In this document: piece by piece, positions 13,541 through 53,647 of the stretch
How the letters are laid out: every line of letters starts with the position of its first letter
Numbering within the stretch: the stretch's first letter is position 1
Assembly: GCA_951406725.2 (NCBI GenBank)
Contig: OX597826.1
Span: forward strand, 37,386,001 to 37,450,000
Source: Octopus vulgaris
Taxonomy: Eukaryota
Direction: 5' to 3'
Length of the DNA: 64,000 nt
Made by a program: the position numbers and the translations under genes
The notes under the pieces: generated by a model
Databases searched by the model: none
What the model saw: only the letters and a program-made list of their open reading frames with translations
What the model was told of the DNA's origin: nothing

Positions 13541-13712
13541 GTTAATCCAAACAAGAAAACAAAAAAACACAACAACGCAAGGACGTGGAACAAATAAAGT
13601 ATTATTGGACGCTTAGGAAAGAAGGGAAGAAGGAGGGTTTAACGTTTCGAGCGGAGCTCTTCGTCGGAAACATAGGAGAAGGAAAGATCCCGAGAAGGGA
13701 AGACAGAGTAAA
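13541..13712 (-). mobile_element. Penelope-type pseudo-LTR fragment, family A copy 1
   Basis: Reverse complement aligns with 16600-16770 and is colinear with 15420-15610; abuts a (TA)n tract; contains a hammerhead motif. Confidence 0.75.
13637..13671 (-). ncRNA. Minimal type I hammerhead ribozyme, variant core CCGACGA
   Basis: Minus strand GTTT-CCGACGA-A-GAGC-TCC-GCTC-GAAA-CG-TT-AAAC: helix I GTTT/AAAC, helix II GAGC/GCTC, palindromic helix III AACGTT. Confidence 0.65.
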
Positions 13713-13853
13713 AGAAATGGAAAAAGGATTCACAATGACCTCGAACCCACAAGAGGAAACGAGAGAGACGGAGGCAGGCTGAACACTGTGCAAATATTCT
13801 TTTAAAAGACTTTTCTTTTAATTTTTCCAAAATTTAATTGTTTTCTATTCTTA

Positions 13854-13889
13854 CAGTTGAGGAGGTCTCGATGACAGAAACCAGTACTG
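13854..13889 (+). ncRNA. Decayed type I hammerhead motif (family B)
   Basis: CAG-TTGAGGA-GGTC-TCGAT-GACA-GAAA-CCAG-TA-CTG; three substitutions away from an intact CTGAGGA / GGTC-GACC / ACCGGT motif. Confidence 0.5.
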
Positions 13890-14453
13890 AAATGTTTTTT
13901 TATAAAATTATTTTAGCATTTTCTACCTTGACTATTTTTTCCATATATATCAACTCGTGTGTGCCTTTTCAACCTTCTACACACACACACACACACATGC
14001 ACACGCACACACGAACATACATATATATATATATATATATTATATGCAAGCTTTCTCTCTACTCTCTATGTGCATACAGACGTTATCTATATACAAAGTT
14101 GGTTATATGAAGTTTACACTGTCTTTAGGAGAACTCGCTTGGATAATTACTACATCCTTAGATCCGCTAGCTATGAAACATATGTAGCCTGGATTTTATC
14201 TACTCGATACCTTAACTTTTGGTTGTTTGTTCGCATTTACAACAACGCTTGTTGCTAACCATGAACTATGAAATAAACTTTTTTCAGCTTATCGTACTTC
14301 GATACGGGAAAAATTCACAACCATCTCCCCCCCAAAAAAAAACATTTTTTCGTGAAAGTTGTTTTTTTATATCTGCCGCAGACTGCTTGAAGCTCACTAA
14401 CTTCATACACCTTGATCCGTGGAACTTATCTTTACATATATTTGCAATATATG

Positions 14454-14500
<47 letters not shown>

Positions 14501-14501
<1 letters not shown>

Positions 14502-15379
14502 TTTGAAAATACTAAGAATCAAACATACCCGTCCGATATCTGTAACATCGGACAAACTATGCCAGACATCCAGTACTAGCGAATCCAAAAATACGAATGA
14601 GATCTATTATTCTCCCTGTCCGCCCACGTGAGTCATAGAGCATTCCATTTCTACAGAGGTAAAAACTGCAGTTTAAATTCTTGGAGAGAAAGCATTATAT
14701 TGTTATGAGAAAATGGGGGTCGAATCAATTAATTATTAATAAATTCGACCAAGCAGTATTCGGTATGTAAAGACCATTTACGGTATATTTGAAGTATTAA
14801 TTTATAAAAATATGGTAAAGTAAAAGAATTCACTTTACCACACACCGAACTTTTCCGAAGTAGCAGCCAAAAATTCGTATTTTTGGATTCGCTAGTACTG
14901 GATGTCTGGCATAGTTTGTCCGATGTTACAGATATCGGACGGGTATGTTTGATTCTTAGTATTTTCAAATCTAAATCAAAAGAAATCTCTGAGCTGATGA
15001 AGGAAAAGTGGCGTTTTACCCACAAATCCAGAAACAGACTGTCCTCGGGTATCGTATATGGATGTGATCTTTCATTGTTTTTCCCTTATTCCTATGTGAG
15101 TTATTTTTCTGAGTATACATTGTCTGGAGACTTTTATTTGCAGTTGAAGAAATAGCCAAGTTTTTGGCTGCTATTTCGGAAAAGTTCGGTGTGTGGTAAA
15201 GTGAATTCTTTTACTTTACCATATTTTTATAAATTAATACTTCAAATATACCGTAAATGGTCTTTACATACCGAATACTGCTTGGTCGAATTTATTAATA
15301 ATTAATTGATTCGACCCCCATTTTCTCATAACAATATAATGCTTTCTCTCCAAGAATTTAAACTGCAGTTTTTACCTCT
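14501..15379 (+). mobile_element. Young Penelope-type/retrozyme-like element with interlocked inverted repeats (family C)
   Basis: A 14501-14598 = revcomp of 14873-14970 (98 bp); B 14655-14873 = revcomp of 15161-15379 (219 bp, one mismatch seen); (TA)n on both sides; hammerhead inside. Confidence 0.85.
14988..15049 (+). ncRNA. Type I hammerhead ribozyme, intact core
   Basis: TCTGAG-CTGATGA-A-GGA..GTGG..CCAC..TCC-A-GAAA-CAG-A-CTG-TC-CTCGGG: 6-bp helix I with G-U pairs, two-part helix II, GUC cleavage triplet at 15041-15043. Confidence 0.8.
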
Positions 15380-15419
15380 ATATATATACATATATATACA
15401 TATATTATATATATATATG

Positions 15420-15610
15420 CAATAAAAAACAAGCACAAAAATCACAACATCGCGAAGACTTGGTACTTGTAAAGTATTAGCAGACGCTCAGGGAAGGAGA
15501 GAAAGATGGCGGAACGTTTCGAGCAGACGCTCTTCTTCGGAAAAAGAGGGAAGTCCAATAGAAGAGAAGACGGAGGAAGAAAATCGCCAATAATTCACAT
15601 GTGGCTACGT
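15420..15610 (-). mobile_element. Penelope-type pseudo-LTR, family A copy 2, with CCGAAGA hammerhead variant at 15511-15544
   Basis: Minus strand CCGAAGA-A-GAGC-GTCT-GCTC-GAAACGTT; flanks align with 13541-13712. Confidence 0.65.
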
Positions 15611-16327
15611 TTTGAACTGATCGGAAGGGAATGGGTGAAGAAAAAGATCTTTCTAAGACAGGAGAGTGTAAGAGAAGGAGTTATGTGTGGGCATGTACGT
15701 GCACTCAAGTCTGTGTATGTGCGCATGTGTATGCGTTGTGTGTGTATGTGTGTGTGTGTGTGTGGTTTTGGCTGTATATAAGTGTATGAGTGAGTGAACT
15801 CTGTGTCGCTTAATGTTGTAGGAAGAATTTAGTAGCAGGAGTGGCAGTCTTTTGTGTAGTTGTGTGTCTCTTCACATGTTTGTAGAGGAATGGTCTGTAG
15901 AAAGGCGTTTAGATGGCAATTCGAAGTATGTGTGTGTATGTACGTGTGTGCCTGTATGCATATGTTGTGCGTGTTTTGTGTGTAGTTTTGTGTGTAATGT
16001 AAACACTTATACATACCATACGAACACAACGTATCCACAGAGTATATACAAATGTTCACGCTTATACATTCGTGGAAGGATTTTTATCTTGTCCATCCAA
16101 TTTTTCGTTATACATGCGTGGCTGAGATGAACAAGATAGAAATCCGTTCATGGATGCATAAGCGTGAACATTTGTATATACTCTGTGTTCGTATGGTATG
16201 TGTAAGTATATATTTCTGGCTACGTTTGCACTGACGAGTGGAGAGCGTGTTGCAGCGGTGTAAATCAGTTTTGGGTGTTGCATTATGTTTATACCGATAT
16301 AATGTAGAATAAATATAATAATATTAG

Positions 16328-16513
16328 TTCTAGGATGGAATTTATAAATAGTTAATACATCGGTACACGAAACCAATCAATGATGCTGATCAACCAGATG
16401 CCCACGGATTATACAGAGAATATCCCAAGAATACCGACTCTGATGTTAAAATCATGTGGTTTGGGGAAACGCGCGTAGCGTTGTATTAAATATTTATAAA
16501 TTCCATCCTAGAA
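16328..16513 (+). mobile_element. Small inverted-end Penelope-type element (family D) with decayed hammerhead at 16430-16487
   Basis: Arms 16328-16369 and 16472-16513 are imperfect reverse complements; AATAC..CTGATGT..AAATCA-TG-TGGTTT..GAAA-CGCGCG-TA-GCGTTGTATT. Confidence 0.6.
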
Positions 16514-16577
16514 TATTGTTACACACATGCACACAAATATATATATACATACATACATACACACACATATATATATG

Positions 16578-16770
16578 TGACCGCGTGTGTACCGTTTGCG
16601 ATTTTTTTCCTCCGTCTTCCCTTCTCTGGATCTGTCCTTTTCCTATGTTTCTGACGAAGAGCTCCGCTCAAAATGTAAGGCCTTCCTTCTTCCCTTCCTC
16701 CGTGAGTGTCCAATAATATTATATTTGTTCTACGTCCTCGCGTAGTTGTGTTTTCATGCTTGGATTAACT
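16578..16770 (+). mobile_element. Penelope-type pseudo-LTR, family A copy 3, with hammerhead remnant at 16647-16681
   Basis: GTTT-CTGACGA-A-GAGC-TCC-GCTC-AAAATGTA: canonical CTGACGA retained, GAAACGT changed by two CpG-type transitions; ends at (TA)n. Confidence 0.7.
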
Positions 16771-16796
16771 TATATATATATATATATATATATATT

Positions 16797-16970
16797 TGAG
16801 TAGTTGAATGAATTATCTTATTAAGGATAATTCGAAAGATAACCGATACCTGGGTAGGTACTCCTGTACTCCTTATTCCTTCGGAATTAGGAATATGCAG
16901 CCTTCGAAACATATGTCGAGAATAAAGGATATTTGTTAACTAGTCGTTCAACTCCATTCTTTCATATACT
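16797..16970 (+). mobile_element. Short TA-embedded element with strongly decayed hammerhead (16871-16928)
   Basis: GAAAC-ATAT-GTC followed by GAGAATAAAGG that pairs with upstream CCTTATTC; CUGANGA not recognisable; short inverted ends GTTGAA/TTCAAC. Confidence 0.4.
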
Positions 16971-16975
16971 TATAT

Positions 16976-17006
<31 letters not shown>

Positions 17007-19514
17007 AATATACATATACAAAATTATCAAAAGCTACATATTACTGAGATTGGCTCTTATCCTTCTAATCCTAGACTCCATTTCTTACATATTTTATGGC
17101 GTATTGCTTTTCAGTGCTCTTTTCCATAAGTATAAATGCTTTGCCTAATGAAAGTTTGCTTCATTTGTGAGACTTCGACGAAGATAGAAAGTGATACACA
17201 ATCACTCAGCTCTGAGAGTATTGCATCTCACTGCAGAAGCTGCTTTAAGCAAATGAAGTTCATTACATAACTTCTTGTCCTCTTGCAATTTATTCAATTT
17301 CTCATTTATACATTCATATATATGTACTATATATATATATATGTGTGTGTGTGTTTGTGTAGGTATGTATGTATTTATGCATGCATGTAATATACACATA
17401 CAAATTATACCGCATACAAGTGTGTATTGGAAGATATAAGTTTAATTGAAGAATTTGTTTTGAATTGTCAAACATATTCCTTTTACGTAAGAAATTAGTT
17501 ATTAATGAAAGTTTCCATCATTGATATATTTTTAACATATAAAGTGCGCTCTGTACAGTTGAATCAAATATAGAAACGGAGCGAAGTTCTTTATTGGAGA
17601 ACTTATTAGCTGGAAAATGGAATGTCCTCTAGTTAACTTTGTCATTGTTTAATTTAATATTTATTCCGAAATAGATATAAATGGATAGTTATAACAACAC
17701 TTATTCACGCCAACCTATGCACTAAGACCAGCAGTCTTTCATAGAATTTATTATAACAAATGCCAATATTGCTGCAACAGCATCTGGCTTGCTGCTAGAC
17801 ACAACGGAAACACAAAGCCTAGTATGGTATTATAATGGCAAGCTTGCAACTATGAGCGAAGAGATGGAGAAATGAAAACAGGAGAACAGAAATAAAACCA
17901 ATTCATTGATTAAATTAGAGTCATTAGGTATAGTTCTAGGGGTTGTCTTATACAGATTTTGCAATTTCATTCGCATATAAGAGAAAAGTGATTTGAAATT
18001 TTCTTAGCGTTCAATTTAGATAGCTGGAACAATGAAAGAATTTCTGTACGGCTCGGATTTATGTTCTTGCAAGGAAATCTCTTCTTATGTCGATGATCTG
18101 ATGAATGGTTTCAATAAAAGATCAAGCCAGCGTCTTCCGGTGCACAACTTAATGGAGTTTAAGTAGTTTCCATGTTTAGTCTTTATAAAGAAAGTTTCCA
18201 TAATATGGCTAGCAATCTCAACGAATGCATTTCAAATGCGTTCTGTATAACGGTGGCCGGAAGGAGAATGCTATAGTGAATCACCGAAATCACTAACAAA
18301 ACTCGATAATGGTCATGTAGAAGAAATATTGAACGGAGAAAGCTATATGGAAATTAAAATAAATATCAGTAATAACTGTAGAGTGGACTTAATTAATTTC
18401 GTTTCCAATATTTAAACATGAAATTCTTCTACGAAATAGTTTCGGTATATATAAACTTACGACGATACATGTATTTTCTGAGGAGTGCTAAATATAGGCT
18501 AGGAAATATGTAGAAATGGCGCACATAAATAGAGAGGCTAAATTAGAAGAACCAGGTAAATATTGTACAAGCACACACTTAGTCATTTACACACACACAC
18601 ACACACACACCGTGTGTGTGTGTGTGTGTAAGGGAGAGATAGTGTTAAGCTTATACTGACATGAAGCATGTTTACAATCAAAGACTTACAACCAATTAAC
18701 GAAAGTAGAAATTGCGAATTTATGAATGAAATGAAAAAAGGTCTGAATAAAACTCGCTGCTGAAATAATTGCTCGATAAGACTAATGCAACTCAAATATT
18801 TCATGAGGTCAAATAATTTGGCTCAAACAGAAATTAACTACCTCCGCTGCACAAATTAAAAACCTTATTCACACATACATCCATGGACATAGAAGTAAAG
18901 AATTTTAACATTTCTATACTTACTTTCAGTCAAATCTGGGTTATTTTCCACCTTAGAAGTATTTTTATTCTACTAAGCTCTTAAGCATATTTCGATTCTC
19001 TTAAACATATTTCGTAGTAATTAATATACTATATGAAAAGTGGCCATTAAATACAGAACTATATTTCTAGCGCAAATAGAATTCACACTGAAATTTCTTT
19101 ACACGGAATTTGTTGTCGCTAACATATATATCCATTGTATATCTATATTCAGGTGCCAACTCACTTGACTAATACCATAGAATATTTTCAAACAATATAC
19201 ACATGTGTGTCTATATACCTAGATATACATGTGTATATGTTGTGTGTGGTGGTGTTTTAGGAGAGAAGGCAGCGACCATGACAGCTTATAGAGTCTCTGA
19301 GGTCGGTGGGATGGAGGGATGAGGATATTCTCCAGTCGAAGCTCCAATCAGAATGCTTACAATAAAGCAGACTTCAGTAGAGTCAGCCGAGGTGCCAGGT
19401 GGACGTGTTAAACGGGGACAGTTTCAGTCTGTTTCCGGATTAATGAACCACTGAGTGAATGGATGGATGGGGAGGAAGAAGGGTATGGGATATTGGTTAG
19501 TTTCTCAAGAAGTC

Positions 19515-20315
19515 TGGAAGATAAGTGACTTACCCAACTCGAAGACAGATTTTGCTGTGGAGAAATGCTTTGAGATAATCTGTGAGAGTGAGGTAGAGTT
19601 CCGTAAAGTCAACACGAGGGAACTGGGCCTGCTTCTTAAACTGAGCTATGACAGTAACTATGAAAACAAACATGACCTTAGTAGATTCTGCACCACCAGG
19701 TCACAGAGGAGAACACCACCTCGCGAGCGAAGAAAAGCATCACACCCACCCAAGATGCTGAGAACAACACACTGGTGGAAAGAACGATTGCACATGCAAT
19801 AGGGGCTAGCATAAGAACCACCTTGAAGAAACACTTAGTAAAGTCTAACAAGAAAAGATACATGCAGGTTCAAGGTGCAGCTATTAGTGTCCATGCGGCT
19901 AGAGATGTGGCCAGCCTGTTCATGACTTGGTGTGACAGAAAACTAAAACAATATTTAACCGAACAATCCACTACTATTGTTTTACCTTAATGTAGGTGTG
20001 TAGATGACATTAACATTCTAGTTAGGACAAATTTTTGTAAATTCAATGTAGAAACCGAGAGGAGCATAATGGAGAGCATCCAGCTTGTAGCTAACTCCAT
20101 CCACCAAAGAATCAAAGTAACTATAAATTACCACCACTAGGCACCCCAACAATAGACTCTCCGTCCTTGATACTGAAATTGGGTTCGATACTATGAACAG
20201 CAGTGTGCAACTCCTCCACTCCTATTACATGAATCATATAGCTTCTAAATATGTTGTTCACAAGAACTCACCTTTGTCACACAACATGGAAATCAATATA
20301 CTGATGGCAAACCTA
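19515..20315 (+). pseudogene. Decayed Penelope-like element reverse transcriptase fragment
   Basis: Across frameshifts and one stop: SDLPN (motif A remnant), QVQGAAIS..ARDVASLFMTWCD (motif B'), RCVDDINI (YxDD, 19994-20017), IQLVANSIHQRIKVTINY, NNRLSVLDTE (motif E), LLHSYYMNHIASKYVVHKNSPL (thumb). Confidence 0.8.
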
Positions 20316-21056
20316 CATATATATTTTTTTATATATGTATATATATATATATATACTGAATATTCTATGCACATTAAAACCTGCAAGGAATGGATTTACA
20401 TTTATATACATATATTCTCTCACAGTTACATATTTAATATTTGCATATTTGCATGTAGCTACGTATGTGTCTATGCATCAAACTTGCACCACTTCGAAGT
20501 TCTACCCTTCGTTTCTTATAGCTTTCATTACAAATGCTGGAGTTGCGATTCAGATTCGGAATGAGCTCGTCTCCGAAATATAAACGATTTCAGCATTTAA
20601 TTCAGGATATTTTGTTGTTAACTACATGAAAATACAATTTTGAGATTCCTGTAGTCCAGCAAATATTGATCAGCACCGTTTACAGAATTTGAGCTCAGTT
20701 TTCTTCTAAAGACTTTCAATTTCCATATTCCAAATATTAACTCTTTCAGTCTCTGCAACTTCGCTTGTTTACCAAATTCACAGCATGAATACTAATTTTC
20801 TATTCGAACAATAAAAGAGCTATTTCTATACGAACAAATACATAACTAACCAGGTTTTTTTTTCTAGAAACATGATATTTTAATGAAATCATAATTATAT
20901 TATATCAGTATTTGACATGAATACCATATTCATTGGTCAAAACCCCACCATACATACATACAAACACACACACATATATATATGTGTGTGTGTATTTTGT
21001 ATATATATATATGTATATATATATATATTGTATGTGTAAATATATATATATATATT

Positions 21057-21128
<72 letters not shown>

Positions 21129-21204
21129 TATACATATAATATGTATATGTCTCTATCCCTTCTTTTTCTCTTTTTTCCTCTTTCTCAACTCACTCTCTCT
21201 CTCA

Positions 21205-21249
<45 letters not shown>

Positions 21250-23409
21250 AGACGAATGGTATGAATGAGGCTGACGGAAGAATTTATGCAGAATATTTCT
21301 TAGTATATATTTATGCAGTATATTTCTCAAAACATTGCAGCTATTGAAACTGACAAACGACTTCAGCGACCTATCCTTGACATTAAATGACATTTCCTTC
21401 AAATAAATATTCCTCCATATAAATATTACGAAATCTAAGTGAAACATGTAGACTCAAACATCATTTTCTCCCCAGTGCCACATATTTAGTTAATTATCCT
21501 CAAATACCTTCACTATATTCACTATTTCTTAACTGTATTTTTGGGCTATTTTTATATTGTATACGAAAATATTTACTATATTTCTCTTGCTGACATTTAA
21601 CATTAAGAGCCCTTAGATATAGATTTCGTTTATCTGTTTCTAAATGTCTTCAGACAGCAACAGAAAACTCGAGACTATTTTCAGGTAAATCGTAGATTTA
21701 GCTATGTAATTTCATTTTCCACTATAAATAGACAGACTTTGCCTATCATAGCAGCATATCTTGTATTTCTGAAGCTCCTAGGAAAATACATAGAATCGAA
21801 AGACGAAAAAGTGATAAAACGATAACATTGTGCCATAATTTTTTTCTTTATGATTGTTGGAATATTTAAAGTATAAGGAAATAAATTTAAAAACTTGCTT
21901 TTCCCCAGTTTACCAAACAAATCTGATTTCTGCTACAACATCTAAAACTATCTCAGGTGAAATTAATGATATTTGGTGGTCGTCATGAACATGGTCCTCC
22001 CTTCATGTCACCGATATTCCACAAGACTTACATACCTTTCTTTCTTTATATATGTCAATAAAACGCTATCTTACAAGAATTAATATTGTCAGCGTGATGG
22101 ATCCATGTAAAGTATAGTTCCCTACATTTTTGTTTATGGAGGAAATGCATGTATGTATGTATGTATGTAAGTTGTATGAGTGTATATTCGATGTATTACT
22201 TTTTACGATAGTTGTGTGTGTTTTGAGAGAAAAGTTTCGTCGTTAACGAAATATTTCAAATATTTAAGGATTTGCTATCTAAATATAAAAAGAGGAAACC
22301 GTCATTGCAAACTGCATAATCTAACCGTATCGCAGACTGTTTTGAAAGTCTACTGTATGACCTGCCAATCAATAGATGAAAGGAGAGTATTTAAGTCAAA
22401 TTAGAAGCTATACACGGCGTTCGCCAACATGGCATTAGAAAGGATGGCAAAAAGAAGAATCTATCGAACATAATATTCATTTTCATTCATTCAATTTCGA
22501 ATTTCTTTCACTAGCATACCTGCTCTGTGATTCGTTATATAACTCTGGGTGAGATTAAGAAAATACAATAAGTCGCAAGTATATGTTAGTGTGTGTAATA
22601 GACTAGACTTCTATTTCAAGAGAATTTCTAAGCCGAGGGCGGATAGAAGTCAATAACATCATCTTTCTCAAATAATCTCCCAAGACGCAATCTTCGAAAA
22701 TGATGCCTTGAAGATATAAAATTTCTGCTGAAAATTTAAGATTCCTTTTAAATACCTTTGTAACTTCATTGTCATTTATCTGTATGATTTTTTCAGAACT
22801 TACTCAACGTAAGAGACATTTTCATATTACTTTTTCTTTCTAAACTTAGAATACTTATATCATTCGCCACGATATTCAACTGATTTGTTCCCTAATCTTA
22901 GTTTGTGTGAGGAAACACTGCAAAATGTACCATAACCATGATGATGATGATGATGAATATGGTCGAGACGCTGGTGGTGCTGGTGGTATTTATGATGGTG
23001 TTCATAATAGTGGTGGTGATAATCATAGATTTAGTCACTATGGAGGAAATGTAGGTATTGATACAAAGATACACTCACTTAACTATGGTAGACGATTCTT
23101 AACAGAAGCTGATCCCTTGTGTAAAATTTTGTGCTCCGTAACTGGGAGCCCGTATATTTACATTCATTTATGTATATTGAGATCAATATCTTAATGCTAA
23201 CCGCATAATCTAACTTGATTTTGATGAATAACCTCATTACTGCGTTATTTGTATGTATGTATGTAAGTAAGTATGTATGTATGTATGTATGTATGTATGT
23301 ATGTATGTATGTATGTATGTATGTATTTATGTATGTATGTATGTATGTATGTATGTATGTATTTATGTATGTATGCATGCATGAATATATATATATTAGT
23401 TGCTTAGGC

Positions 23410-23521
23410 CGGTTACTGACGAGAATTCGCCTGGTAGATAATATGGTCTGGCTAAATTATCTATTAAAAGATGGCAAGCAATATTATTTGCTAAACAAAA
23501 TTCGAAACCATGGTATAACCG
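23410..23521 (+). ncRNA. Type I hammerhead ribozyme with long branched helix II insertion
   Basis: CGGTTA-CTGACGA-GAATT-[~70 nt]-AATTC-GAAA-CCATGG-TA-TAACCG; perfect 6-bp helix I, 5-bp helix II base, palindromic helix III, GUA site at 23513-23515. Confidence 0.85.
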
Positions 23522-23525
23522 TTAT

Positions 23526-23714
23526 GTTAGTTAGTTAGTTAGTTAGTTAGTTAATTTTGGCTCAAAAGCAAATAGCAAGGCCATGTAGGGGGACATGGAG
23601 TTAAGTACAGGGTGGTGTTCATGTAAAAAGTTCAGGCCACTTGAGGTCAAGGGAGACTTTGAACAAAGCGGTCGTCGGATTCTTCACCATCTCGTCTGGC
23701 AGCTTGTTCCACGG
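23526..23714 (-). mobile_element. 5'-truncated CR1-like LINE 3' end with (TAAC)n tail
   Basis: Minus strand translates PWNKLPDEMVKNPTTALFKVSLDLKWPELFT*, the WNxLP...FKxxLD C-terminus of CR1/L2 ORF2; absent from the second repeat unit. Confidence 0.85.
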
Positions 23715-23900
23715 TATTTTTCATTTACTTCGAAATTTGCAATAAAATTGTGTTTTCTTTGGCCGTGTTGGCTGCTATTTCTAGCATGTAAAAAATACCT
23801 GTTAAAGTGTAATTTTCTATTTTGAAGTACGAATATGTTGTCTATTGACTTTTTATAGATGCTAGGCCACTGGCGGTGATATTTATAACGAGTATTCGCC

Positions 23901-23932
<32 letters not shown>

Positions 23933-23935
<3 letters not shown>

Positions 23936-24000
23936 GGCGGTGCCCCAGCATGGCCACAGCTCATAAGCTGAAACTGGAATCAATCAATCAATCAATCAAT
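23933..24000 (+). mobile_element. LINE-type 3' tail fragment with (AATC)n
   Basis: GGCGGTGCCCCAGCATGGCCACAGC..GCTGAAACT, shared with SINE tails at ~37848, ~42440 and ~60556 and with the tail after the 48050 LINE. Confidence 0.7.
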
Positions 24001-24164
24001 ATATATATATATATGTGTGTACCTTATGAATATGTTCCTAGCATTCTCGAAGTTTCAGCTCGGCATTGTATCTATTGCTGACTGTAAATGCGGCTGCGTG
24101 CGATATTTGAAAAATTATAGCATATAATGATGGGACACGTGTTATCTTGTCTCTGAATTATAAG

Positions 24165-24500
24165 TTAGTTGTTTAGACCGGTTACTGACGAGAATTCTCC
24201 TGGTAGATGAAATGGTCTTGCTAAATTATCTATTAAAAGATGGCAAGCAATATTGTTTGTAAAGAAATTCGAAACCACGGTATAACCGTTATATAACAAG
24301 GTAAAAGTTTATATTTTTCATTTACTTCGAAATTTGCTATAAAATTGTGGTTTTTTGTCTGGGTTGGCTGCTATTTCTAGCATGTAAAAATTACCTGTTA
24401 AAGGGTAATTTTCTATTTTGAAATACGAATATGTTGTCTATTGACTTTTTATAGATGCTTGGCCACTGGTGGCGATATTTATAACGAGTATTCGCCACCC
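24165..24500 (+). mobile_element. Hammerhead-bearing repeat, family E unit 2
   Basis: Uninterrupted, slightly diverged copy of 23396-23904; may extend upstream to ~24020. Confidence 0.85.
24179..24288 (+). ncRNA. Type I hammerhead ribozyme, second tandem copy
   Basis: CGGTTA-CTGACGA-GAATT..AATTC-GAAA-CCACGG-TA-TAACCG; core and helix I identical to 23410. Confidence 0.85.
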
Positions 24501-24538
24501 TATATATATTTTTTTTTTAAGAAAAGAAAGGTAAAGAA

Positions 24539-24808: not shown

Positions 24809-24858
<50 letters not shown>

Positions 24859-27151: not shown

Positions 27152-27233
<82 letters not shown>

Positions 27234-39973: not shown

Positions 39974-40021
<48 letters not shown>

Positions 40022-42490: not shown

Positions 42491-42677
42491 AAAACGATAC
42501 TTTAATGTGTTTCTATATCTTATTCTTTCATATTTTCTACTTGCTAATTTAGATGTGATGGTGCGGTGCAGGTTTGCATCGAATTTATATATTTTAGAAT
42601 TACTCAAGTCTTTTCCAAATTCACCAAGTGAAATTCTCCAATACAGTGGCCGATAGTCGTTGTTATGAAGTCCTACA

Positions 42678-43897: not shown

Positions 43898-43899
43898 AT

Positions 43900-43958
<59 letters not shown>

Positions 43959-44000
43959 CATACATACATACATACATACATACATACATACATACATACA
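43898..44000. repeat. (TAGA)n(TACA)n microsatellite
   Basis: Direct reading. Confidence 0.95.
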
Positions 44001-44236
44001 AATATACATATTTCGAAAGCACGTCTCTCTGCAGTAGTACTCATATACTGAGGGTAGAAAGGAGTGGAGCATAATTGCATCGGCAAAGAAGGAAATTAGA
44101 AAAGGATAAAAACAAGTGGTGAGAGTAAAAGGTTTAAAACACATGGGGAGTATTCCATTCTGAACGAGATATTATATTCTTGTTTTTGAGAACAATGAAC
44201 ATATCAGCGAGATTATAGTTGGGCGCCTACAAAATG

Positions 44237-44237
44237 A

Positions 44238-44286
<49 letters not shown>

Positions 44287-44340
44287 CGACGATGGTGATG
44301 GTGCTGGTGGTGGTGCTGGTGGTGGTGAAGTTGATGATGC
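44237..44340. repeat. (GAT)n/(GGT)n microsatellite
   Basis: Direct reading; source of the poly-H and poly-S pseudo-ORFs. Confidence 0.9.
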
Positions 44341-45377
44341 GGAAGAGGGTGTACGATCAAGGTACAAAATAACAGTAGCTGATTTCTTTGTTTGAACCCA
44401 GTTGTTATAGAACATTTAAAAGGTAACCACAGTCGTGGAGAGCATTCACCGATGAAACTCTGAAGGTTCCATGTCCCACTGTAACCCAGCTATTTCTTCT
44501 TTCAGGCTTTTGAAATCTAACTTCATTTAATTTTTGTTTTCAATAATCGTATTTATTCTGTAATTTTTAATCTATATGAGTTTTTTTTCCTGATATATTC
44601 TTTGCTTAAAGTCCTTTACCCAGTTTCTATTCATCTCTTTTTGTTCATCCTTGCACATTTGTAACTCGTGTGTCGACGTTTCTCGCTATATTGACGTATG
44701 ATATACACTCCAACCTGAATAGAACAATAATATTCTTTGTTTAGAAAGTTATTTGTGAAAATTTCGATATCATCAGTGACACTTTAGCGAGATTCATGTT
44801 TTGTTTATATTTTTATGAATTTTCTGTTGAATGTGTTTGTTAAAACTTTGATTGTTCATGCTATTCACTTTGACATTTAAAATCTCATTTGTGTTTTTAT
44901 TTCAAGAAACTTTAAATGATTTCTGGTATAAGTTAAAACTATAAAGAAACCTAATAATAACGTCAAATGTATTGTAAAAATAATGGCAATTCTGCTAAAT
45001 GAAACATGACATATATTGTACTTATTTACCTTTTCTCCTTCATATCTCATAACTGAAATCTCGATAGCTGGAGAATAAGTTCGCCATTTTATTTTCGATG
45101 AGTTACTAGTGTTATGTGACTTACTTGTTGATTCAAATTGGAATATTTTCAAGTCGGTGAAAGGTAATGTTTTGGCTGATAGTTAACCATCATGCTACAG
45201 CAATTCGCAAAACTCTGAATTGAAAACTATATTCTTATTCCCAGAAAATCAGATGTAAGACAGCGTCTCTATTCGGTTTCTATGTTGTTGTGTCCATAAA
45301 GTAATGTATGCCTGCATGGAAGATAACAAATGATATCTAACATTAGCTAATTATGGCATATTTTCGGAATATTTGAT

Positions 45378-45754
45378 AAATAGAGAATACCAAACGAGTT
45401 CCCTATGGATACCGTATTTATTACAACGAGTGGCTTGTAAACGAGTTGTAATAAATACGGTCTCCATAAGAAATGAGTTTGGTATTTTATTTATTACACA
45501 CGAATAAACGACCATATTTTATTAACCCAGTAACTAAATTCTTCAGGTTTAGTTATAACTTATGAATGACAAAAGTAGTGCCGTCACCGTGACCTCAAAT
45601 CATCACCATGGATTGACCAATCAGAAGCAGCGCTGTCACCGTGACCTCGGGTTATCACCACGGATTGACCAATCAGAAGCAGCGCTCGCAGTATCTGACA
45701 TATGTTAGATACCAAAAATATCTCAAAGTGTTCTCACTCACATGTGTGTAATAA
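45378..45754. mobile_element. Probable non-autonomous DNA element: 100-bp palindrome plus 52-bp tandem duplication
   Basis: Hairpin 45386-45486; units 45583-45634 and 45635-45686; TTATTACACAC (45491) inverted with GTGTGTAATAA (~45744). Confidence 0.55.
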
Positions 45755-46234
45755 CTAACTATAATCCGATTAAAGCTATCTATTATTAACTGGCAGCCAT
45801 GAATTGGTAAATGGTGCAGGTATTTCTACTACGTTTATATTATGGTGTGTTCTAAGTATAAATCTGTTAAGAGATTTACTAAAATGTCTAGGGTCTAAAA
45901 TGACATGTATTGTTAACACTCTAATACGTGGATAGAGTATATCACGCCAAATGGGAGCTAATATACAGTCATTAACCTCCTAAAATAATAGTCAAATACT
46001 CTATGGTCACCCTGATCACGATATGAAATGAGTGGGCTTTTTTTTTATGACGAAAGCCTATAAATGTATACGAAATTTTAGGATAGTCACAGTTACAACG
46101 ACTTCGTTCATATATTTCCTTCATCATTGCTTACCTTAGGTTAAAGACCAACATCTCATTAAGTTAATATTAGAATAACCATAATTGCGAGTTGATTAAT
46201 TAGCGAACAATTAGCTGAATCAACAGTGATACAT

Positions 46235-46330
46235 GTTTATATCGTTGCCACTCTGCTCTGTTCATGACCCAAGTCTTGAATAGACCGCAGTCATCTAGAT
46301 TTTGGTAGGTACAGCAGAACGCGTTATAAT
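46235..46330 (-). pseudogene. Possible RTE-clade LINE extreme C-terminus
   Basis: TYQNLDDCGLFKTWVMNRAEWQR resembles the MxDRxxWR terminus of RTE ORF2. Confidence 0.35.
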
Positions 46331-46934
46331 TTACTGCTGTAACATCGACATTATAAAAGTGACAAGCTGTTCTTTTGCTTGGAGTTCTAGAAGTCAATAG
46401 AATGCCCTACTATTGTATCACCCCTTTAATCATGACATGAAAAGCAAATTAATACAAACGCTGCTCTGACGACTCAATAGATTTACAAGACTAATTAGCA
46501 CTGAACATTATACATGTTTCACAACTGGCTTCATCGCATACCAACCACATTTCTCATTATATTCTGATTCGCTTCGCCTTGTCAAGGTTTGCTATCCGAA
46601 TGTCTCCCTAATTTACTGCAACCTCAATCATTGTCCAAAGCCTTAGAATCCATTGTTTATCATGTCAGCAAACTTTCCCCAATCTCTTCCAATTTACTAT
46701 TATACATTTCCCAGACTCTTACTTAATACTCTGTTACCACAATTAACACTATCATTCCCACTCTTGTCATGTCCAACACATCAATAAAAATACTTCGGAT
46801 TTTTAACTTCCGAACTACAAAAACATCTTTATTAGCTCTATTTGACATCTCATCATACATTAAAGGACAGGCTGTATTAATTTCCTCTTCCTGCTACCAG
46901 AATTTTATGTAAATGTTGTATATATATATATATA

Positions 46935-47001
<67 letters not shown>

Positions 47002-48049
47002 GTATGTACAAACACACACGTACACAAACACACGCACACATATACTTATGTATGTATATCCATATATATACGCATATACATACGTAACAATGCATTCAAA
47101 AATAAATCGATTTGTTGAAGCTAGTCGCAGCGTTAAGAGTTTTATGGCTCTTATTTCCAAGATGTAATACTATAAAAGGTGTCTTTGTATGTCTCCTGAC
47201 ATAATGAAAGCGCAAATGAACAGGTCGCCAAACAGTAAATAAAACGATTTAAGGGAGACATTTGGCTAGAATTTGATGAGGGCAAAATAGATTGGAACCC
47301 GTTGATATAGGACTCTTGTTCGTAGCTAAGAATGGGATTTTCCTTCCTTTAAATATGTAAACTAGCTCTGAAACTAATACCAGATATCATGAAATTATTT
47401 TATCATTTGTTCGGGAGTCTAAGTTGCAGTAAGGACATTTTAAAAAATTTATCTCTTAAAATCTGAATGGCATTTCAACTAATTATGCTTCTTCCTGCAT
47501 CATTTAATACATCAACCTTTGCACGTATTTAGCTGATATTTCTATATTTGTATACGTTAAAAGTCATTTTTTTTATTGTTATATATTGCTAGTTTACTAT
47601 GTTCTTAACCACAAATTTGTATTGAGACAGAACTACAAAGACAGACATGATAATGGCGTTAAGCTAATCGATAACGAATTGTCTACCAATAATTATAAAA
47701 ATAAATCATTGAAGTTCATTATCCTTCCTCGCTCGAAAAAATGGAAATAGTTAAATTAGTGTTATCGTCATAATGCATCGAACGTCAACAATGTACGCAT
47801 GCAGAAGGAGAAATACTTCAGCAGGAAAAATAGAAAACAAATAATGTTAAATAATATAACACAATCGGTTCAGCATTTCTATGTAGGCGTATGATGCTCA
47901 GTACAGGAAATAGGTAAACAGAAAGTTAACTTTAGGTGCTGTCTCTGTATAATTCGACATAAAGGTGTGATTTTGTGTATCTGTATTTGTTTATGTGTGT
48001 GCGTGTCTGTTTATGTGTGTGTATGTATATATATGATTATCTACCCCTC

Positions 48050-48310
48050 TGTCAGACACAGTACTGCAAGAGTCTGGGTTTCAAGGGCCAGCGATTGTTC
48101 AACCTCCTTCCAGGCAACCTTAGAGATCTACATGGTGTTGGTGTGGATGTTTTCAAGGAACATCTGGACAGGTTTCTATCTGAGATACCAGATGAACCCA
48201 CGCAAAGAAGAGCAACTCCTTCCAACTCGCTACATCACCAAAACCAATATCGGAAACAACACCGAGTAACTACAGGTGATGCAACAGCATGATCTCAACC
48301 AGGGAAAGAG
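48050..48310 (+). mobile_element. 5'-truncated CR1/L2-like LINE 3' end
   Basis: SLGFKGQRLFNLLPGNLRDLHGVGVDVFKEHLDRFLSEIPDEP (FNxLP...FKxxLD motif), then a decayed GGTG..CAGCATG tail and microsatellite. Confidence 0.85.
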
Positions 48311-49834
48311 ATAGATACATACATAGACAGACAGACACACGTACACATACATACATACATACATACATACATACATACATACATACATACATACATACAT
48401 ACATACATACATACATACATACATACATACATACATACATGATGTGTATAGCTTCATTAAGCATTGTGTGATATATCATAAATGTTTTTAATTTCGCTGA
48501 AAACCCAAATAAGAAATAATAAAGGTGAATGTTTATTACTTATCGCCTGTATTCCGATATTTCGTGCTTAAAACCACTTATTCGAGAATTCTTTGGTTCC
48601 AGCTAGCTTTCCTATTTTTTAATGCATATAGGCGTGCTTATATGGAAACTTGCTTTGCGTGCGCATGACAGCATTACAATAACAACCAATCACCTGCGTG
48701 CAACTTGATTCCGCTATTAAATGTAATTTGGTCTTAATACTGATTATGGTGCTCTTTCTTCTCAGTTTCTCATCATTCACGGTGTGATATTTACGCAGAT
48801 GGTTTTTCCATGCAGGACGCACCAGCAGCTACATGTTCTTTGACGGTTAGGAATTTCAATGTGAGTTTCATTTATTTATCACAATTGATTTCATTTACCA
48901 CGTAGGGCCGCATATATTCTCATTATTCAGTTCGGTCCTTGGGAAATATGCACGTGCCGTTGTTGTTTGAGTTAGAAGGTTGCACCGAGGGGTGTGTGCA
49001 AGTCGCATATACAATACTTCCACACGGATTGGCCGTTAGATTTGAGGGTTGCTTCTTCGTCGGTCGAAGCCCTGGCGTTTGGCAAAAGAGTGTCGATGAC
49101 CATTTTAAATAAGACTTTTCTGAATTGCATACTGTTGCTTTGTTTTCTTTCTCGTCTCATTGCATTTACTTTCTATCCTCAGGACCTCATTTTGTAATTT
49201 GGCCACTATAGCTTTGATGGGTAGAAATGAATTGTAATGCACCGATAGGCGCTTTTCTGTACAAGTTCGTACTTGTATGGTTCCATTCTCTGGGATTCTG
49301 AGTTTGAAATCCAGGAAAGATAAGAGATCGGTTCTATCTGGATGTCACGGACCAGTTGGAACACCGAGAACACAAAGTCTATCCCTCCTGAGCCTATTTT
49401 GTCCTGCAATGCAAATGACATTCTCATCCTAACATCGTCTCCTGGGGAGACTATAAAGATATATGAAACGTTTAATAACATTGACGACCGCAGAAGACTT
49501 GAAGTGGAGGATCGCAGTGATGCAAGTTACTTATCTCTGCTTGATTTCGAATACATAATCACAGATCCCACTCAGCTATCTTTGTCTGAAAATCGCCCTG
49601 CAGGGATCTTTTGAGCATTACAATTCAACCCTTCTCATGGAATCCAAGACGGCCAACGTAAGAAATGAGATCTAAATGTTTTGCAGTAAATACAGAGCTC
49701 CCGTCTTATATATTGTTCAGATGTAGTACGACTTAGAGCTCATTAGCAAATGCCGTCCTTTTTATAAGACAGGAAAGCGTGTGTGTTTCAGGCGGTATTG
49801 TTGTTTCTACTTGGTAATTCAATACCATAGTAAC

Positions 49835-50050
49835 GATTTCTGATTTTGGTAAATGGCCAGCAATCTTCAGGGTGCGGTAAATCGATTACATGAATTTCTG
49901 TACTTGACTGTTACTTTATTTTATCAACACTGAAATGATAAAAGTCAAATTTGGCCGGGTCAAAATTTTAGCACCGAACGTAAAGAGCGTGAAGAAATAC
50001 CGATAAGCATATTTCGTCCGCTGTGCTAAGACCTCTGCCAGCATACCATT
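49835..50050 (-). mobile_element. Decayed Deu/Nin-type SINE
   Basis: TCGATTACAT..TACTTTATTTTATC..AAAGTCAA..GCTAAG..TCTGCCAGC colinear with the 41795 and 11490 copies. Confidence 0.65.
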
Positions 50051-50831
50051 TTCAAAAATACTTCAATACTATTAGAGACACCAGTAATAATGATACACCA
50101 ATCTACATTTATGTAATGGAAGCATTAAATCAAATCAATGAACCCAGTGTATTTATAGTAATATGTTATTAACCCAAATCATAAACTTTAAATCACTCCA
50201 AGTGGACTAAGAACTTAGAACATAGAGACACAAAACCAAGCACTGTAAAAGAATTAGAAGACACGAACTGCCTGGATTTCCCAGCATATCTTGAGCTACG
50301 AAAAAAAATATCGTTATCTCAAACAAGTCTCTGTAGTTTACAGTAAATATGTCATTTATACTACAAAGCACGAAACTTGTGCAATTATTGAAAGATTAGT
50401 GTCAGTGTAATTGCATAGTTGTTAAAGTAGAGGACAAGCTGCCTAGAAGGATTTCTTCTGGGACTTTGCGTTTTAGGTTCAAATCTCGCCGATATTAAAT
50501 TATAAGTCATTTTAAGCCCATAAAATAATGAGCAATTTCCGATTCGAATTACATTTGCAGAATTGTCACAGAATCGAATAGGAGGCCCGTTGGCATACTC
50601 ACCCGTTCTTAGCCTACTAATTTCATGGGTAGAAGGTTTAATCAGTTCCCCAGCTTAGCACGCCCTCCAGATCGTTATATACCATCAATGATGTTCTGTA
50701 TCCTGCAAGAATTCTTGTCAGACTTCAGGTTCGGAGAAAATAATTTTTTCCTTTATCTATTCCTAAATTATAGAGTCGAAGCCGCTATCCACTTTGACTA
50801 CGAACTGAATATACATACATACCTACATACA

Positions 50832-50908
<77 letters not shown>

Positions 50909-51262
50909 TGTATGCATGTACATATATCATGTCACCACAGAATTGCATTCAGATTAGATTTCTCCCGAGCATACATAACACTCTATAGATGTTCTTATTG
51001 ATTGATACAGTCATTTACACCTCCAAAGTAATTGCGCACATAGAAATGAATATTGTTATCGATTGTGTGCAAATGTTTTTCTATATGTCTAGAAAATAAA
51101 TTTTCTTGTAAACATAACAAAACTACAACTGTAATATTTGAAAGAAGTTGGTTAATTTGTCTCATGTGTATATGATTTCATATGTATGTGTATTTATGAA
51201 TGTTTGGAAGTTGTTAAACAGTGTGGTGTTCATATACCCATGTATATATATATATATGTATG

Positions 51263-51341
<79 letters not shown>

Positions 51342-51342
51342 G

Positions 51343-52108
51343 CAAGGTTTAGGTTACTTAAAATATGTTTGTGACATATTTAAACTGCTAAAAGGCGAAT
51401 TCACTGCAGTTACCATTGTGAAAATTTTCTCTTGTGATAAAAAGCTGTAAAAATACCATGTCTGCTCAGATATCGATGTTTCTAGCTCCTTAGAAGTTGT
51501 CAATGTGGAATACTTAAGATAAGCAACCCTGGACAGAGCTTATTAATGTTATAGCTTTAGCTAAAACACAGTCAACAGCATGGATTGATTTGCGCTGTAG
51601 ACCGCCAGATCGCAGAAATTACCGGAATATTAGCACCAAGCATTGTTTAGGCATAAGCAAAGCTTAGATTAGTTAAAATATGTTTTTGACATATTTCAAC
51701 TACTAAAAGGCAAAGTCACTGCAGTTAGCGTGAAGAAAAGTTCCTCTTACAATAAAAAAGTGTAAAAATACCATATCGCCTAAAGAATTCTTGGTACTAA
51801 TATTACGGTAATTTGCACGACCTGGCGGTCTAGAGTGCAAAACAATTAAAGCTTTTGACTACATTTTATCTAAAGCTATAGCTTTAATAAGGTTTCTCCG
51901 CAGTTGCTTCTCTTAGGAATTTCCCACTGGTGACATCTAAGGAGCTAGAAACATCGATGTGTGTGAATTTCAATCGATAGTGACACTGGACAGCTTTTTA
52001 CCATTAGAGAAAATATTTTCCGCGGTAACTGCAATAAATATGCCTTTTAGCAATTAAAATACTAACCTAAACTTTTCTTATACCTAAACACTGCTTGGCG
52101 TTAATATC
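51343..52108. mobile_element. Older tandem-plus-inverted Penelope-type element (family F) with decayed hammerhead at 51918-51970
   Basis: Direct repeat with period ~315 bp (51358 vs 51673); 51472-51652 inverted at 51778-51958; 51375-51450 inverted at 51990-52061; CTGGTGA..GAAA-CATCGATG-TG. Confidence 0.75.
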
Positions 52109-52185
52109 ATGCATACATAAAAACATACATACATATATATCATATATATATATATATAGATAGATAGATAGATAGATAGATAGAC

Positions 52186-52224
<39 letters not shown>

Positions 52225-52275
52225 GGGAGAGAGAGAGAGAGAAAGTGAGAGAGACAAAGAGAGAGAGAGAAAGAA

Positions 52276-52550
52276 GGACCCCTTTGACTATGAATGACCA
52301 TGCAATTGCACCGCGAGGTTCTTTATGGAAGACCACGCTCCCGTTTCTACGCCACCGATATCATTCCATAGAAAGGCAAAGACCGATACAGCTTAGCAAT
52401 ACTGACGTTGCAACTCTTTTCTAAAGCTGAGTGACATGGAGCAACGCGAAATAGAGTGTCTTGCACAAGAACACAACACACAGTCCTGTCTAGGAATCGA
52501 ACTCGCTTCCACAGCATTGTGAACTCGACGCTCTCAGCCATTCGCCTTCA
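52276..52550 (-). mobile_element. Decayed SINE of the 42678 family
   Basis: GCTGAGTG..TGGAGCAACGCGAAATAGAGTGTCTTGCACAAGAACACAAC..GGAATCGAACTC is the reverse complement of B-box plus CORE-like domain. Confidence 0.8.
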
Positions 52551-52594
52551 CCCACACACGCTCACATATGTATGTATATATATATATATATATT

Positions 52595-52665
<71 letters not shown>

Positions 52666-52751
52666 CATATATATACATATATATATATATATGTATGTAT
52701 GTATGTATGCATGGGTAATATGTATATATATATATGTAAGTATATATGTTT

Positions 52752-52786
<35 letters not shown>

Positions 52787-52797
52787 GTATATATATG

Positions 52798-52855
<58 letters not shown>

Positions 52856-53539
52856 AATGATAAAAAGAATATATAACATGCAATGCATCTTTGTGCATGT
52901 GTAAAAGTATAATTGATGCATGTACGTTATCGAAGAGCAGCATTCTGTATGATTAGTTATTTCATATTTCACTTACAGATCTTTTTCTTTATTTACTTTG
53001 TAAGGAGAAACATACAAATAAGAAAGAAGACAGCAAAGGACCACTGATGCGGTCACAGGAAAATGACGAAAGAACTCTGGCCGAAATAAGATTAAGATTA
53101 ATGCAAAAAATAAATAACGCTGAAGCAAAGTAACACCAAATATATAGTACGTGTGTTTTTATTGGCTAAACTGGCAAAATGACCATTCCTAAATACAACA
53201 CTATGATTTCAAATGTATATATATATATACAGACAGGCACGAACACATGCACACAAATATATATATATATATACACACACGCAAATGTATATATGCATAT
53301 AGGAGCCTGCGAATCGACCGTAATCCTTATAATGACAAGTGGCCCCTAGAGGAGCTTTATGGGATAGCCAAGCGATTCTATGAATCCATATATTACACTA
53401 CAAATTTATATGTGTATATATATGCGCTCGTGTGTGTGTTGTGTGTGTGCGCGAGCGCGCGTATGCGCCCTGGCACGCGTGTGTGTGTGTTAAGTAAAAT
53501 GAGACAATAAAGCCTTCAGGACTCATTTATAAAGAGAAA

Positions 53540-53587
53540 GTCTTACAGCTGTTTCTGGGATGTTAGGAATGTCCCTTCATCAGAAAC
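53540..53587 (-). ncRNA. Minimal type I hammerhead ribozyme, intact core (family G)
   Basis: Minus strand GTTT-CTGATGA-A-GGGA-CATTCCTAACA-TCCC-A-GAAA-CAGCTG-TA-AGAC; lies in a ~110-bp island between (TG)n and (TA)n. Confidence 0.8.
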
Positions 53588-53598
53588 GATGTGAGATG

Positions 53599-53647
<49 letters not shown>

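Follow-up and report, generated by a model that had tools for sequence, protein, structure and literature searches.

How did a dozen or so hammerhead-like sequences, in families otherwise sharing little, come to lie among the microsatellites of one stretch of octopus DNA, and are they ribozymes at all? In the window (the whole 64,000-nt stretch analyzed here, not a single feature), a first-pass annotation had listed 11 motifs in about seven families, all of type I topology. Hammerhead-family sequence is present at all 11 positions, a 12th motif (an inverted family G copy at ~51465-51515, minus strand) lies beyond that list, and the families number eight (Table 1). A strict type I descriptor accepts four of the 11 sites (cores 14994+, 23416+, 24185+, and 53583-); the other seven are decayed, variant, or half ribozymes. 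Among the seven, the cores at 13637- and 15511- read CCGACGA and CCGAAGA, 16647+ has AAAA and a decayed palindrome, and 13854+ reads TTGAGGA, whereas 23/25 loci of its family have the U3-A8 variant TTGAAAA as core. At 51918+ the sequence is CTGGTGA and the cleavage position is occupied by G, the CTGATGA strand is gone from 16430+, and 16871+ is a 3′ half alone, fused to an inverted tail.

Table 1. Hammerhead-bearing islands of the window and their features.
Feature	Coordinates	Strand	Predicted nature	Hammerhead and boundaries
Family A, copy 1	13541..13716	-	Truncated 3′ end of a putative Neptune-type PLE	Minimal hammerhead ~13637-13671, core CCGACGA; 3′ end at (TA)n
Family C	13724..13980	+	Truncated 3′ end of a putative Neptune-type PLE; head-to-head with A copy 1	Hammerhead 13854-13889; terminates at (CA)n
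Family B insertion	14504..15379	+	Young insertion of a 563-nt unit lacking ORFs; inverted over 14504-14873, in sense over 14873-15379	Hammerhead 14988-15049 intact, with cleavage predicted after 15043; (TA)n both sides
Family A, copy 2	15419..15779	-	Includes partial 3′ UTR common to coding copy L019	Hammerhead ~15508-15545, core CCGAAGA
Family D	16328..16515	+	Predicted coding-PLE 3′ end with short 5′ inversion	CTGATGA strand lacking; GAAA-CGCGCG-TA retained at 16466-16477
Family A, copy 3	16575..16770	+		CTGACGA core intact, GAAA and palindrome decayed; 3′ (TA)n
Family E	16796..16970	+	Predicted Hydra-clade PLE end; inverted tail 16796-16857	3′ half only (from 16865); (TA)n both sides
Family F	23395..24500	+	Single head-to-tail dimer of ORF-less 492-nt unit, broken by nested inserts ~23521-23715 and ~23905-24010	Hammerheads intact at both cores (23416 and 24185), with a long helix II
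Family G	51347..52107	+	ORF-less unit of ~313-340 nt; inverted over 51347-51777, in sense over 51779-52107	Decayed hammerheads ~51918-51970 (+) and ~51465-51515 (-, TTGACAA, U3-A8)
Family H	53483..53603	-	Predicted PLE 3′ end; longer copies with Hydra-like endonuclease upstream	Hammerhead 53540-53587 intact; bounded by (CA)n on the 3′ side and (TA)n on the 5′ side

The simplest explanation, that AT-rich repeat DNA yields such motifs by chance, draws on two observations: with one core mismatch permitted, the descriptor matches shuffled sequence about once per window (mean 1.17 over 12 shuffles, against six in the window itself), and Rfam lists no hammerhead family among 150 of 166 matches, those listed being solely microsatellite-driven miRNA. 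Shuffle controls of the kind that the first-pass annotation had proposed refute this explanation, and its probability is negligible: the strict descriptor gave no match in 30 block-wise dinucleotide shuffles of the window (one in 30 when helix I was relaxed to 3 bp), and sixty fixed-position 10-kb pieces of the genome (600 kb) contained 31 motifs against 0, 1, and 0 in shuffles. Thus, the type I core (CUGANGA / GAAA / UH, helices I and II in type I order) exceeds chance. It is also conserved within families, with intact cores in 23/25 B and 19/20 H copies and a U3-A8 variant in C and G. As claimed, helix III is commonly palindromic, in 26/35 motifs of the random sample against a background of 9.9% (palindromy not imposed). 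The hammerhead motifs are therefore real and, judged by sequence, predicted to be self-cutting, and the original observation was confirmed in part.

The same annotation saw a local community of families nesting together. By the strict descriptor, the window has 62 motifs/Mb and the 600-kb sample 52/Mb, which extrapolates to ~1.4×10^5 motifs genome-wide, and beside family loci the density of other families is 32-34/Mb, with no inter-family clustering. A local hotspot or community was consequently rejected; the eight families seem over-represented in the window, from which they were chosen.

In families A, C, D, E, and H, longer copies carry coding sequence upstream, of Penelope-like endonuclease/RT type (Neptune-type or Hydra clade), and by this comparison the window copies are 5′-truncated 3′ ends (pseudo-LTRs) of Penelope-like elements (PLEs), bearing out the proposed link to a Penelope-like RT. 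Sense-upstream coding sequence was found in 3/53 loci of A (L019, L324, and L331), 4/24 of C, two independent loci of 18 in D, 5/15 young copies of E (L197 being nearly full-length), and 3/19 of H plus L356 (E ~1e-6); the H matches are weak, and three such loci were reached via the 3′ UTR, not the ribozyme. An entire ORF with RT and C-terminal GIY-YIG domains lies upstream of the hammerhead end in E, and a related hammerhead lies 3′ of the ORF in 18/20 long E relatives; the coding sequence recovered for A, C, D, and H consists of endonuclease or thumb fragments. The pseudo-LTR, the partial tandem and 5′-inverted structure, and the optional tail are those of EN+ PLEs. The view previously taken, that all eight families are dedicated non-autonomous mini-elements whose long copies are merely parents, would account for the similar 5′ ends and ~200-nt length of most A copies and for the few loci that extend to coding sequence (A 3/53). 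It is nevertheless improbable, since A, C, D, E, and H extend 5′ by degrees into the 3′ UTR and ORF, few of their copies form short tandem units (A 2/30, C 0/25, D 1/20), and the copies were sampled by similarity to short queries. "Non-autonomous mini-elements" thus remains an apt description for B, F, and G and fails for the five families with coding sequence upstream.

Families A and C may be assigned to the Neptune type by linker motif, a CX2-5CxxC linker preceding the endonuclease in translations of L019 (A, where it reads CX4CxxC) and L083 (C), as it does in the Neptune-clade PLEs of the consulted part of PMC8557442, which share a microsatellite bias with A and C; the assignment is by this motif alone, the RT being only partly recovered. 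Upstream of H, a linker-like motif was noticed by eye in L154 and discounted, being absent from other copies. The E-lineage ORFs bear RIRW, SDKT, and LYRDD motifs (RIRWL in 11/19 and QSDKT in 15/19 printed ORFs, partial ones included) that resemble, by eye, Hydra sequences in the portion of the Craig 2021 supplement (PMC8557442) compared. According to the same source, E shares with Hydra PLEs, including Hydra-1_Obim, the RW and DKT motifs, a C-terminal GIY-YIG endonuclease, a canonical hammerhead, and (TA)n targeting, and the clade is known from an octopus; E differs in being longer (3.6 kb, ~900 aa) and in lacking the CxCX5C linker in 19/19 ORFs. The lineage is therefore termed Hydra-like, below strict Hydra membership. 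By eye, the Hydra-1_Obim hammerhead given there is unlike that of all eight families. Pfam and PDB sequence searches with the PLE ORFs of the E lineage were blank, and Atlas placed these ORFs in PLE/RT-type clusters at 0.94-0.97.

Families B, F, and G have a different organization. Their copies wrap round a fixed unit (563 nt in B, 492 nt in F, and ~320 nt in G) that contains one type I hammerhead and whose longest ATG ORF is at most 52 aa. They fit non-LTR retrozymes that are likely copied in trans by PLEs. As predicted circles, the units fold with z values of -7.3 (B), -3.8 (F), and -2.9 (G), the last being weak, given that the control, the E 3′ UTR, is itself stably folded (z -2.3). Neither a coding partner in any fetched locus nor an ORF with RT plus C-terminal GIY-YIG upstream of their ends was found in searches that covered the best 40 matches, a depth that rare coding elements could escape. 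Three candidate partners were rejected: a PLE fragment beside B in L047 belongs to a different element, beyond (TA)30, an RT fragment near F in L077 is set apart by (TA)15 and another repeat, and another young Hydra family, whose ORFs span 727 aa, carries a hammerhead of its own and shows similarity to none of B, F, and G. The search depth would leave room for B, F, and G also being ends of coding PLEs, with tandem units arising by local duplication and no trans-mobilized retrozyme, and their 3′-end and inversion behavior does match that of coding PLEs. Such an origin has little probability, given that none of 25 B loci (plus five with wider flanks) leaves the unit, that B wraps round even in sub-unit-length insertions and inverted arms, and that a B relative at 68-72% identity retains an ORF-less unit of 565 nt.

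Further data on the putative retrozymes bear on their template. In a rolling-circle test on B, units within one insertion mostly share subfamily variants, and 3/37 locus-private variants are common to all covering segments, a result that does not separate a circular from a tandem template. An expression look-up returned no RNA holder among the matches listed; the wrap-round joint occurs with a genomic subfamily haplotype in contigs from four runs not recorded as RNA, where it is equally expected from tandem DNA.

Insertion footprints connect both groups. Across families, 121/186 copies have 3′ ends abutting (TA)n against a background of 6.8%, in support of microsatellite targeting, although the assertion that nearly all islands are TA/TG-bounded proved family-dependent: TA lies at the 3′ end in B 18/21, E 33/34, and F 21/23, in A 18/29 and C 17/24, and in only 4/18 each of D and G, while H ends at CA/TG in 9/19 copies and at TA in 6/19. 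The E lineage inserts at TA although it lacks the cysteine linker that has been proposed as the cause of TA targeting. The 3′ ends of B concentrate at unit positions 191-199 (14/21 copies), and same-family 5′ inversions occur in B 15/21, E 24/34, G 8/18, and F 6/23; B, F, and G thus bear apparent PLE insertion footprints. Mixed-template insertion, considered for the head-to-head A copy 1 and C, was rejected, as 0/210 loci carry an inverted 5′ piece from a different one of the eight families.

Very probably, then, the islands are products of PLE target-primed reverse transcription, five families being 5′-truncated ends of coding PLEs and three being ORF-less units likely copied in trans, so that the original interpretation is partly supported. 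From the motifs and their conservation, the coding links, units, flanks, and density, we infer the enzymatic steps, trans-mobilization, cleavage, and circles as follows. The GIY-YIG endonuclease would nick within (TA)n or (CA)n; RT would begin on the 3′ side of the ribozyme, at one of a small set of fixed internal positions, and mostly halt early, so that a short end carrying the ribozyme remains. Often, the target's second strand may prime on the same RNA, which would yield a 5′ inverted piece and a microsatellite at either flank. In B, F, and G, a tandem or circular non-coding RNA would serve as template, such that copies could start at any point of the unit and continue round it. Cutting by the hammerhead is predicted in dimeric form only, via the palindromic helix III, potentially freeing unit-length RNA from tandem transcripts.

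Folding of helix III is compatible with a dimer: its strands form no hairpin alone, and their predicted self-duplexes range from -6.9 to -11.2 kcal/mol. A point against the proposed model is that the MFE folds of window hammerhead monomers are no better than shuffles (z 0.4 to -1.8). Instead, the motifs could be carried along without activity or serve the PLE protein as structural signals, a less favored explanation to which we give modest weight. Published minimal PLE hammerheads cleave poorly (PMC4209133), cleavage is dispensable for PLE insertion in vitro (PMC11167929), and B insertions start away from the predicted cut; among Xenopus retrozyme dimers, only 1/9 was reported active (bioRxiv 2026.07.22.740005). 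Working ribozymes are favored by a core conserved across unrelated families, by U3-A8 compensation in C and G, and by putative covariation in the E lineage, where the three helices show compensatory pairs (91% paired, 24 double-change cells; 0/500 shuffles), although the count of covarying pairs falls within shuffles (268/500) and the structure was derived from the same, related sequences.

This kind of element is already published (Cervera 2014/2020; Craig 2021, including a TA-targeting octopus Hydra; and a 2026 preprint), and the finding therefore mainly extends a known kind to the octopus genome. A literature search on octopus or cephalopod hammerheads, retrozymes, and Penelope found no hammerhead survey of this genome, and the main text of a 2026 octopus repeat paper contains neither "hammerhead" nor "ribozyme" (0 occurrences), although its supplement and that of the 2026 preprint may list some of these families. 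With confidence somewhat short of even, we propose that the genome holds ~10^5 intact-looking hammerheads of many unrelated families, on a par with axolotl, that the complete PLE footprint of its ORF-less retrozymes, comprising (TA)n targets, fixed internal start sites, and second-strand inversions, is direct genomic evidence of trans-copying by PLE proteins, and that a young, linker-less Hydra-like lineage with open ORFs targets (TA)n. If so, it would be a ready system for questions of trans-copying and of the linker: near-identical B copies coexist in one genome with open 727-aa and 900-aa PLE ORFs, making trans-mobilization of retrozymes testable, and the E lineage probes the idea that a cysteine linker sets microsatellite targeting.

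Compared with the minimal hammerheads of PLE pseudo-LTRs, as described in the consulted part of PMC4209133, those of the octopus share type I topology, a palindromic helix III, and the dimer model; there, too, most hammerheads are solitary, ascribed to truncated PLEs, and opposite-strand pairs 100-700 bp apart and the U3-A8 core variant occur. The eight families themselves were not found in that part, and some differ from its minimal hammerheads in their long helix II inserts (~110 nt in D, ~80 nt in F, and ~55 nt in E). Like metazoan non-LTR retrozymes, in the portions available of PMC7229834 and bioRxiv 10.64898/2026.07.22.740005, families B, F, and G consist of tandem units that are non-coding and low in GC, each with a single type I hammerhead, and have self-paired predicted circles and a proposed PLE mobilization. 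They are known here from genomic DNA, their circles being predicted, with no homologous pseudo-LTR parent found. In contrast to the retrozymes of those sources, they occur as dispersed 1-3-mers at (TA)n targets, with fixed internal 3′ ends and 5′ inversions.

The eight hammerhead-bearing repeat families of the window (A to H) are further members of the known hammerhead elements of Penelope-like elements (PLEs) and retrozymes, a phenomenon that is genome-wide and already published, not a local community. PMC4209133 attributes solitary minimal hammerheads to truncated PLEs and also describes opposite-strand pairs and the U3-A8 core (a compensated core variant); non-LTR retrozymes were defined in PMC7229834, which puts their number in axolotl at up to 120,000 and suggests that they are mobilized by PLEs, whose pseudo-LTRs have been argued to be the origin of retrozymes (bioRxiv 10.64898/2026.07.22.740005). 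The Hydra clade of PLEs is defined as TA-targeting and hammerhead-bearing, with one octopus member (PMC8557442), and PMC13282606, which lists 31 PLE families as recently active in Octopus vulgaris, leaves ribozymes unmentioned in its main text.

The window (G000:C13:37386001-37450000; GC 28-40%, rich in microsatellites) lies in a 2.8-Gb assembly of ~30 chromosome-sized contigs, and no long non-repetitive ORF was found within the hammerhead-bearing region. Four window sites (cores 14994+, 23416+, 24185+ and 53583-) match a strict type I descriptor made up of CTGANGA, a helix II of ≥3 bp, GAAA, helix III, TH and a helix I of ≥4 bp, and the 30 dinucleotide shuffles contain none; tolerating a single mismatch raises the window count to six, versus a shuffle mean of 1.17. 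No hammerhead appeared among the 150 of 166 Rfam matches listed for the window. Every island was searched against the genome, and the 5′ core strands at family loci are largely CTGANGA or U3-A8, indicating that these families carry hammerheads. Thus, the motifs proposed in the first-pass annotation are real and its 11 sites belong to families, but seven of those copies are decayed, variant or partial (those of D and E are without the 5′ core strand), and a minus-strand copy of G had been overlooked. In an A subfamily (L311-L335), 8 of 25 copies have a CCGAAGA core, either a natural U4C variant or a CpG-related change.

Window features and family tallies (first-look candidates are not copy numbers; core tallies count the window copy in and come from fetched loci biased toward it)
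Feature	Window position (strand)	First-look candidates	5′ core strand	3′ end at TA	Same-family 5′ inversion
A	13541..13716(-); 15419..15779(-); 16575..16770(+)	2738	CTGANGA 26/30	18/29	0/53
B	14504..15379(+)	845	CTGANGA 24/25	18/21	15/21
C	13724..13980(+)	990	U3-A8 23/25	17/24	1/24
D	16328..16515(+)	870	CTGANGA 11/20 (4 not parsed)	4/18	3/18
E	16796..16970(+)	1838		33/34	24/34
F	23395..24500(+)	211	CTGANGA 17/25 (8 not parsed)	21/23	6/23
G	51347..52107(+)	137	U3-A8 9/20 (5 not parsed)	4/18	8/18
H	53483..53603(-)	752	CTGANGA 19/20	6/19 (CA/TG 9/19)	4/19
Seven-island stretch	13541..16970
A/C junction	13716..13724
Hairpin	16048..16174
12-nt B/F motif	15166; 23770; 24366

The proposed local community did not survive comparison with a genome sample of sixty 10-kb stretches at round coordinates (599,800 nt), where strict motifs occur at 52/Mb versus 62/Mb in the window. 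The 31 sampled motifs (shuffles: 0, 1, 0) fall in 19 of the 60 stretches and represent 22 independent loci. Scaled to the genome, this gives 145,000 motifs as the point estimate, and the bootstrap range of 16-50 motifs becomes ~75,000-233,000. Motifs of other families lie beside family loci at 32-34/Mb, arguing against clustering between families. The palindromic helix III was borne out: with helix III not imposed, it is self-complementary in 26 of 35 motifs of the random sample versus a background of 9.9%. On their own, the helix III strands of B, H and F fold into no hairpin, and their modeled self-duplexes (-6.9, -11.1 and -11.2 kcal/mol, respectively) fit the dimer model reviewed in PMC6765202; monomer folds are unremarkable.

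The suggested tie to PLEs was correct, since PLE coding sequence lies upstream of the A, C, D, E and H ends in longer copies; in consequence, the label of non-autonomous mini-elements applies to B, F and G and not to these five. A is linked to coding sequence in 3 of 53 loci (L019, L324 and L331); in L019, a CX4CxxC linker precedes the endonuclease, which is followed by a 3′ UTR that is rich in CA and partly shared with window 15576-15779. A related endonuclease lies upstream of C in 4 of 24 loci, and L083 and L093 have RT-thumb sequence as well. A Hydra-like endonuclease lies 500-800 nt upstream of D in L108 and L107/L109 (the latter pair being one locus). Five of 15 young E copies reach the ORF, L197 being almost complete with one frameshift. 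For H, the putative link is the weakest of the five: endonuclease matches (E about 1e-6) are placed 0.9-1.3 kb upstream in L356 and in 3 of 19 family loci. For E, an RT search scored 131 places, ~30 by our own count with stop-free frames of at least 885 aa; a related hammerhead lies ~600 nt downstream in 18 of 20 long RT loci. Pfam and PDB searches with the PLE ORFs gave no match, Atlas returned RT/HTH_animal clusters, and the ORF motifs agree by eye with the Hydra sequences consulted in the PMC8557442 supplement.

Two young Hydra-like lineages were also encountered. The E-related one (L231-L249, e.g., G000:C1:119515000-119524999) has ~900-aa open ORFs and 3.6-kb tandem copies; the other (L360, L366-L395), a Hydra family, has a CxCX5C-like linker, 727-aa open frames, TA-bounded ends and a hammerhead of its own in which helix II is very short. 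Across 16 distinct hammerheads of the E lineage, pairing is kept in 91% of cells and each of the three helices shows double changes (24 cells; 0/500 shuffles), with pair counts not above shuffles and on a structure derived from the same, related sequences.

B, F and G are ORF-less units (563, 492 and ~313-340 nt; longest ATG ORFs 52, 45 and 24 aa), and no coding partner was found in the loci fetched. Folded as circles, they have z-scores of -7.3, -3.8 and -2.9, respectively (E 3′ UTR control, -2.3). B copies, 99-100% identical to the window copy, never extend beyond the unit; their starts can fall at any position, and they run across its junction, frequently carry an inverted arm and end at preferred sites (unit positions 191-199 in 14 of 21). 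The two window F sites are one dimer interrupted by nested inserts. A 565-nt ORF-less tandem unit at L238:5842-6590 (z -4.4) shares 68-72% identity with B but differs in its helix III palindrome, and L251 (G000:C1:20000001-20010000) holds a 359-nt hammerhead unit in a tandem plus inverted array (7 motifs; z -4.5). The 12-nt motif 3′ of the ribozyme in B and F is also present in three unrelated repeats of the random sample.

TA-flank enrichment held overall, (TA)4 or longer bordering the 3′ end of 121 of 186 copies versus 6.8% of random points, but it is family-dependent, being low in D and G, whose reference sequences may fall short of the true 3′ ends, and H ends more often at CA/TG than at TA. 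Microsatellite on both sides of some islands is due to same-family 5′ inversions. Two points merit follow-up: that ORF-less units bear the PLE insertion footprint, and TA targeting without the cysteine linker (0/19 ORFs of the E-related lineage; 33/34 E ends at TA).

In the mechanism envisaged, a PLE endonuclease would nick the microsatellite, reverse transcription would begin at an internal site and frequently stop early, leaving truncated copies, and the second strand would be primed in turn. Tandem or circular ORF-less RNAs may use PLE proteins in trans, and hammerhead cleavage is predicted to be dimer-dependent. Work on a lizard PLE demonstrated AT-rich cutting, initiation at internal sites and the extension of both strands, with hammerhead cleavage dispensable in vitro (PMC11167929).

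Seven islands of the window fall within 3.5 kb, whereas the families show no genome-wide clustering. Here A (minus) abuts C (plus) head-to-head with no microsatellite in between, a mixed-family junction without counterpart in 210 other loci, and between the second A island and D lies a 127-nt near-perfect hairpin (-64.5 kcal/mol, z -12.3), possibly a MITE or fold-back insertion.
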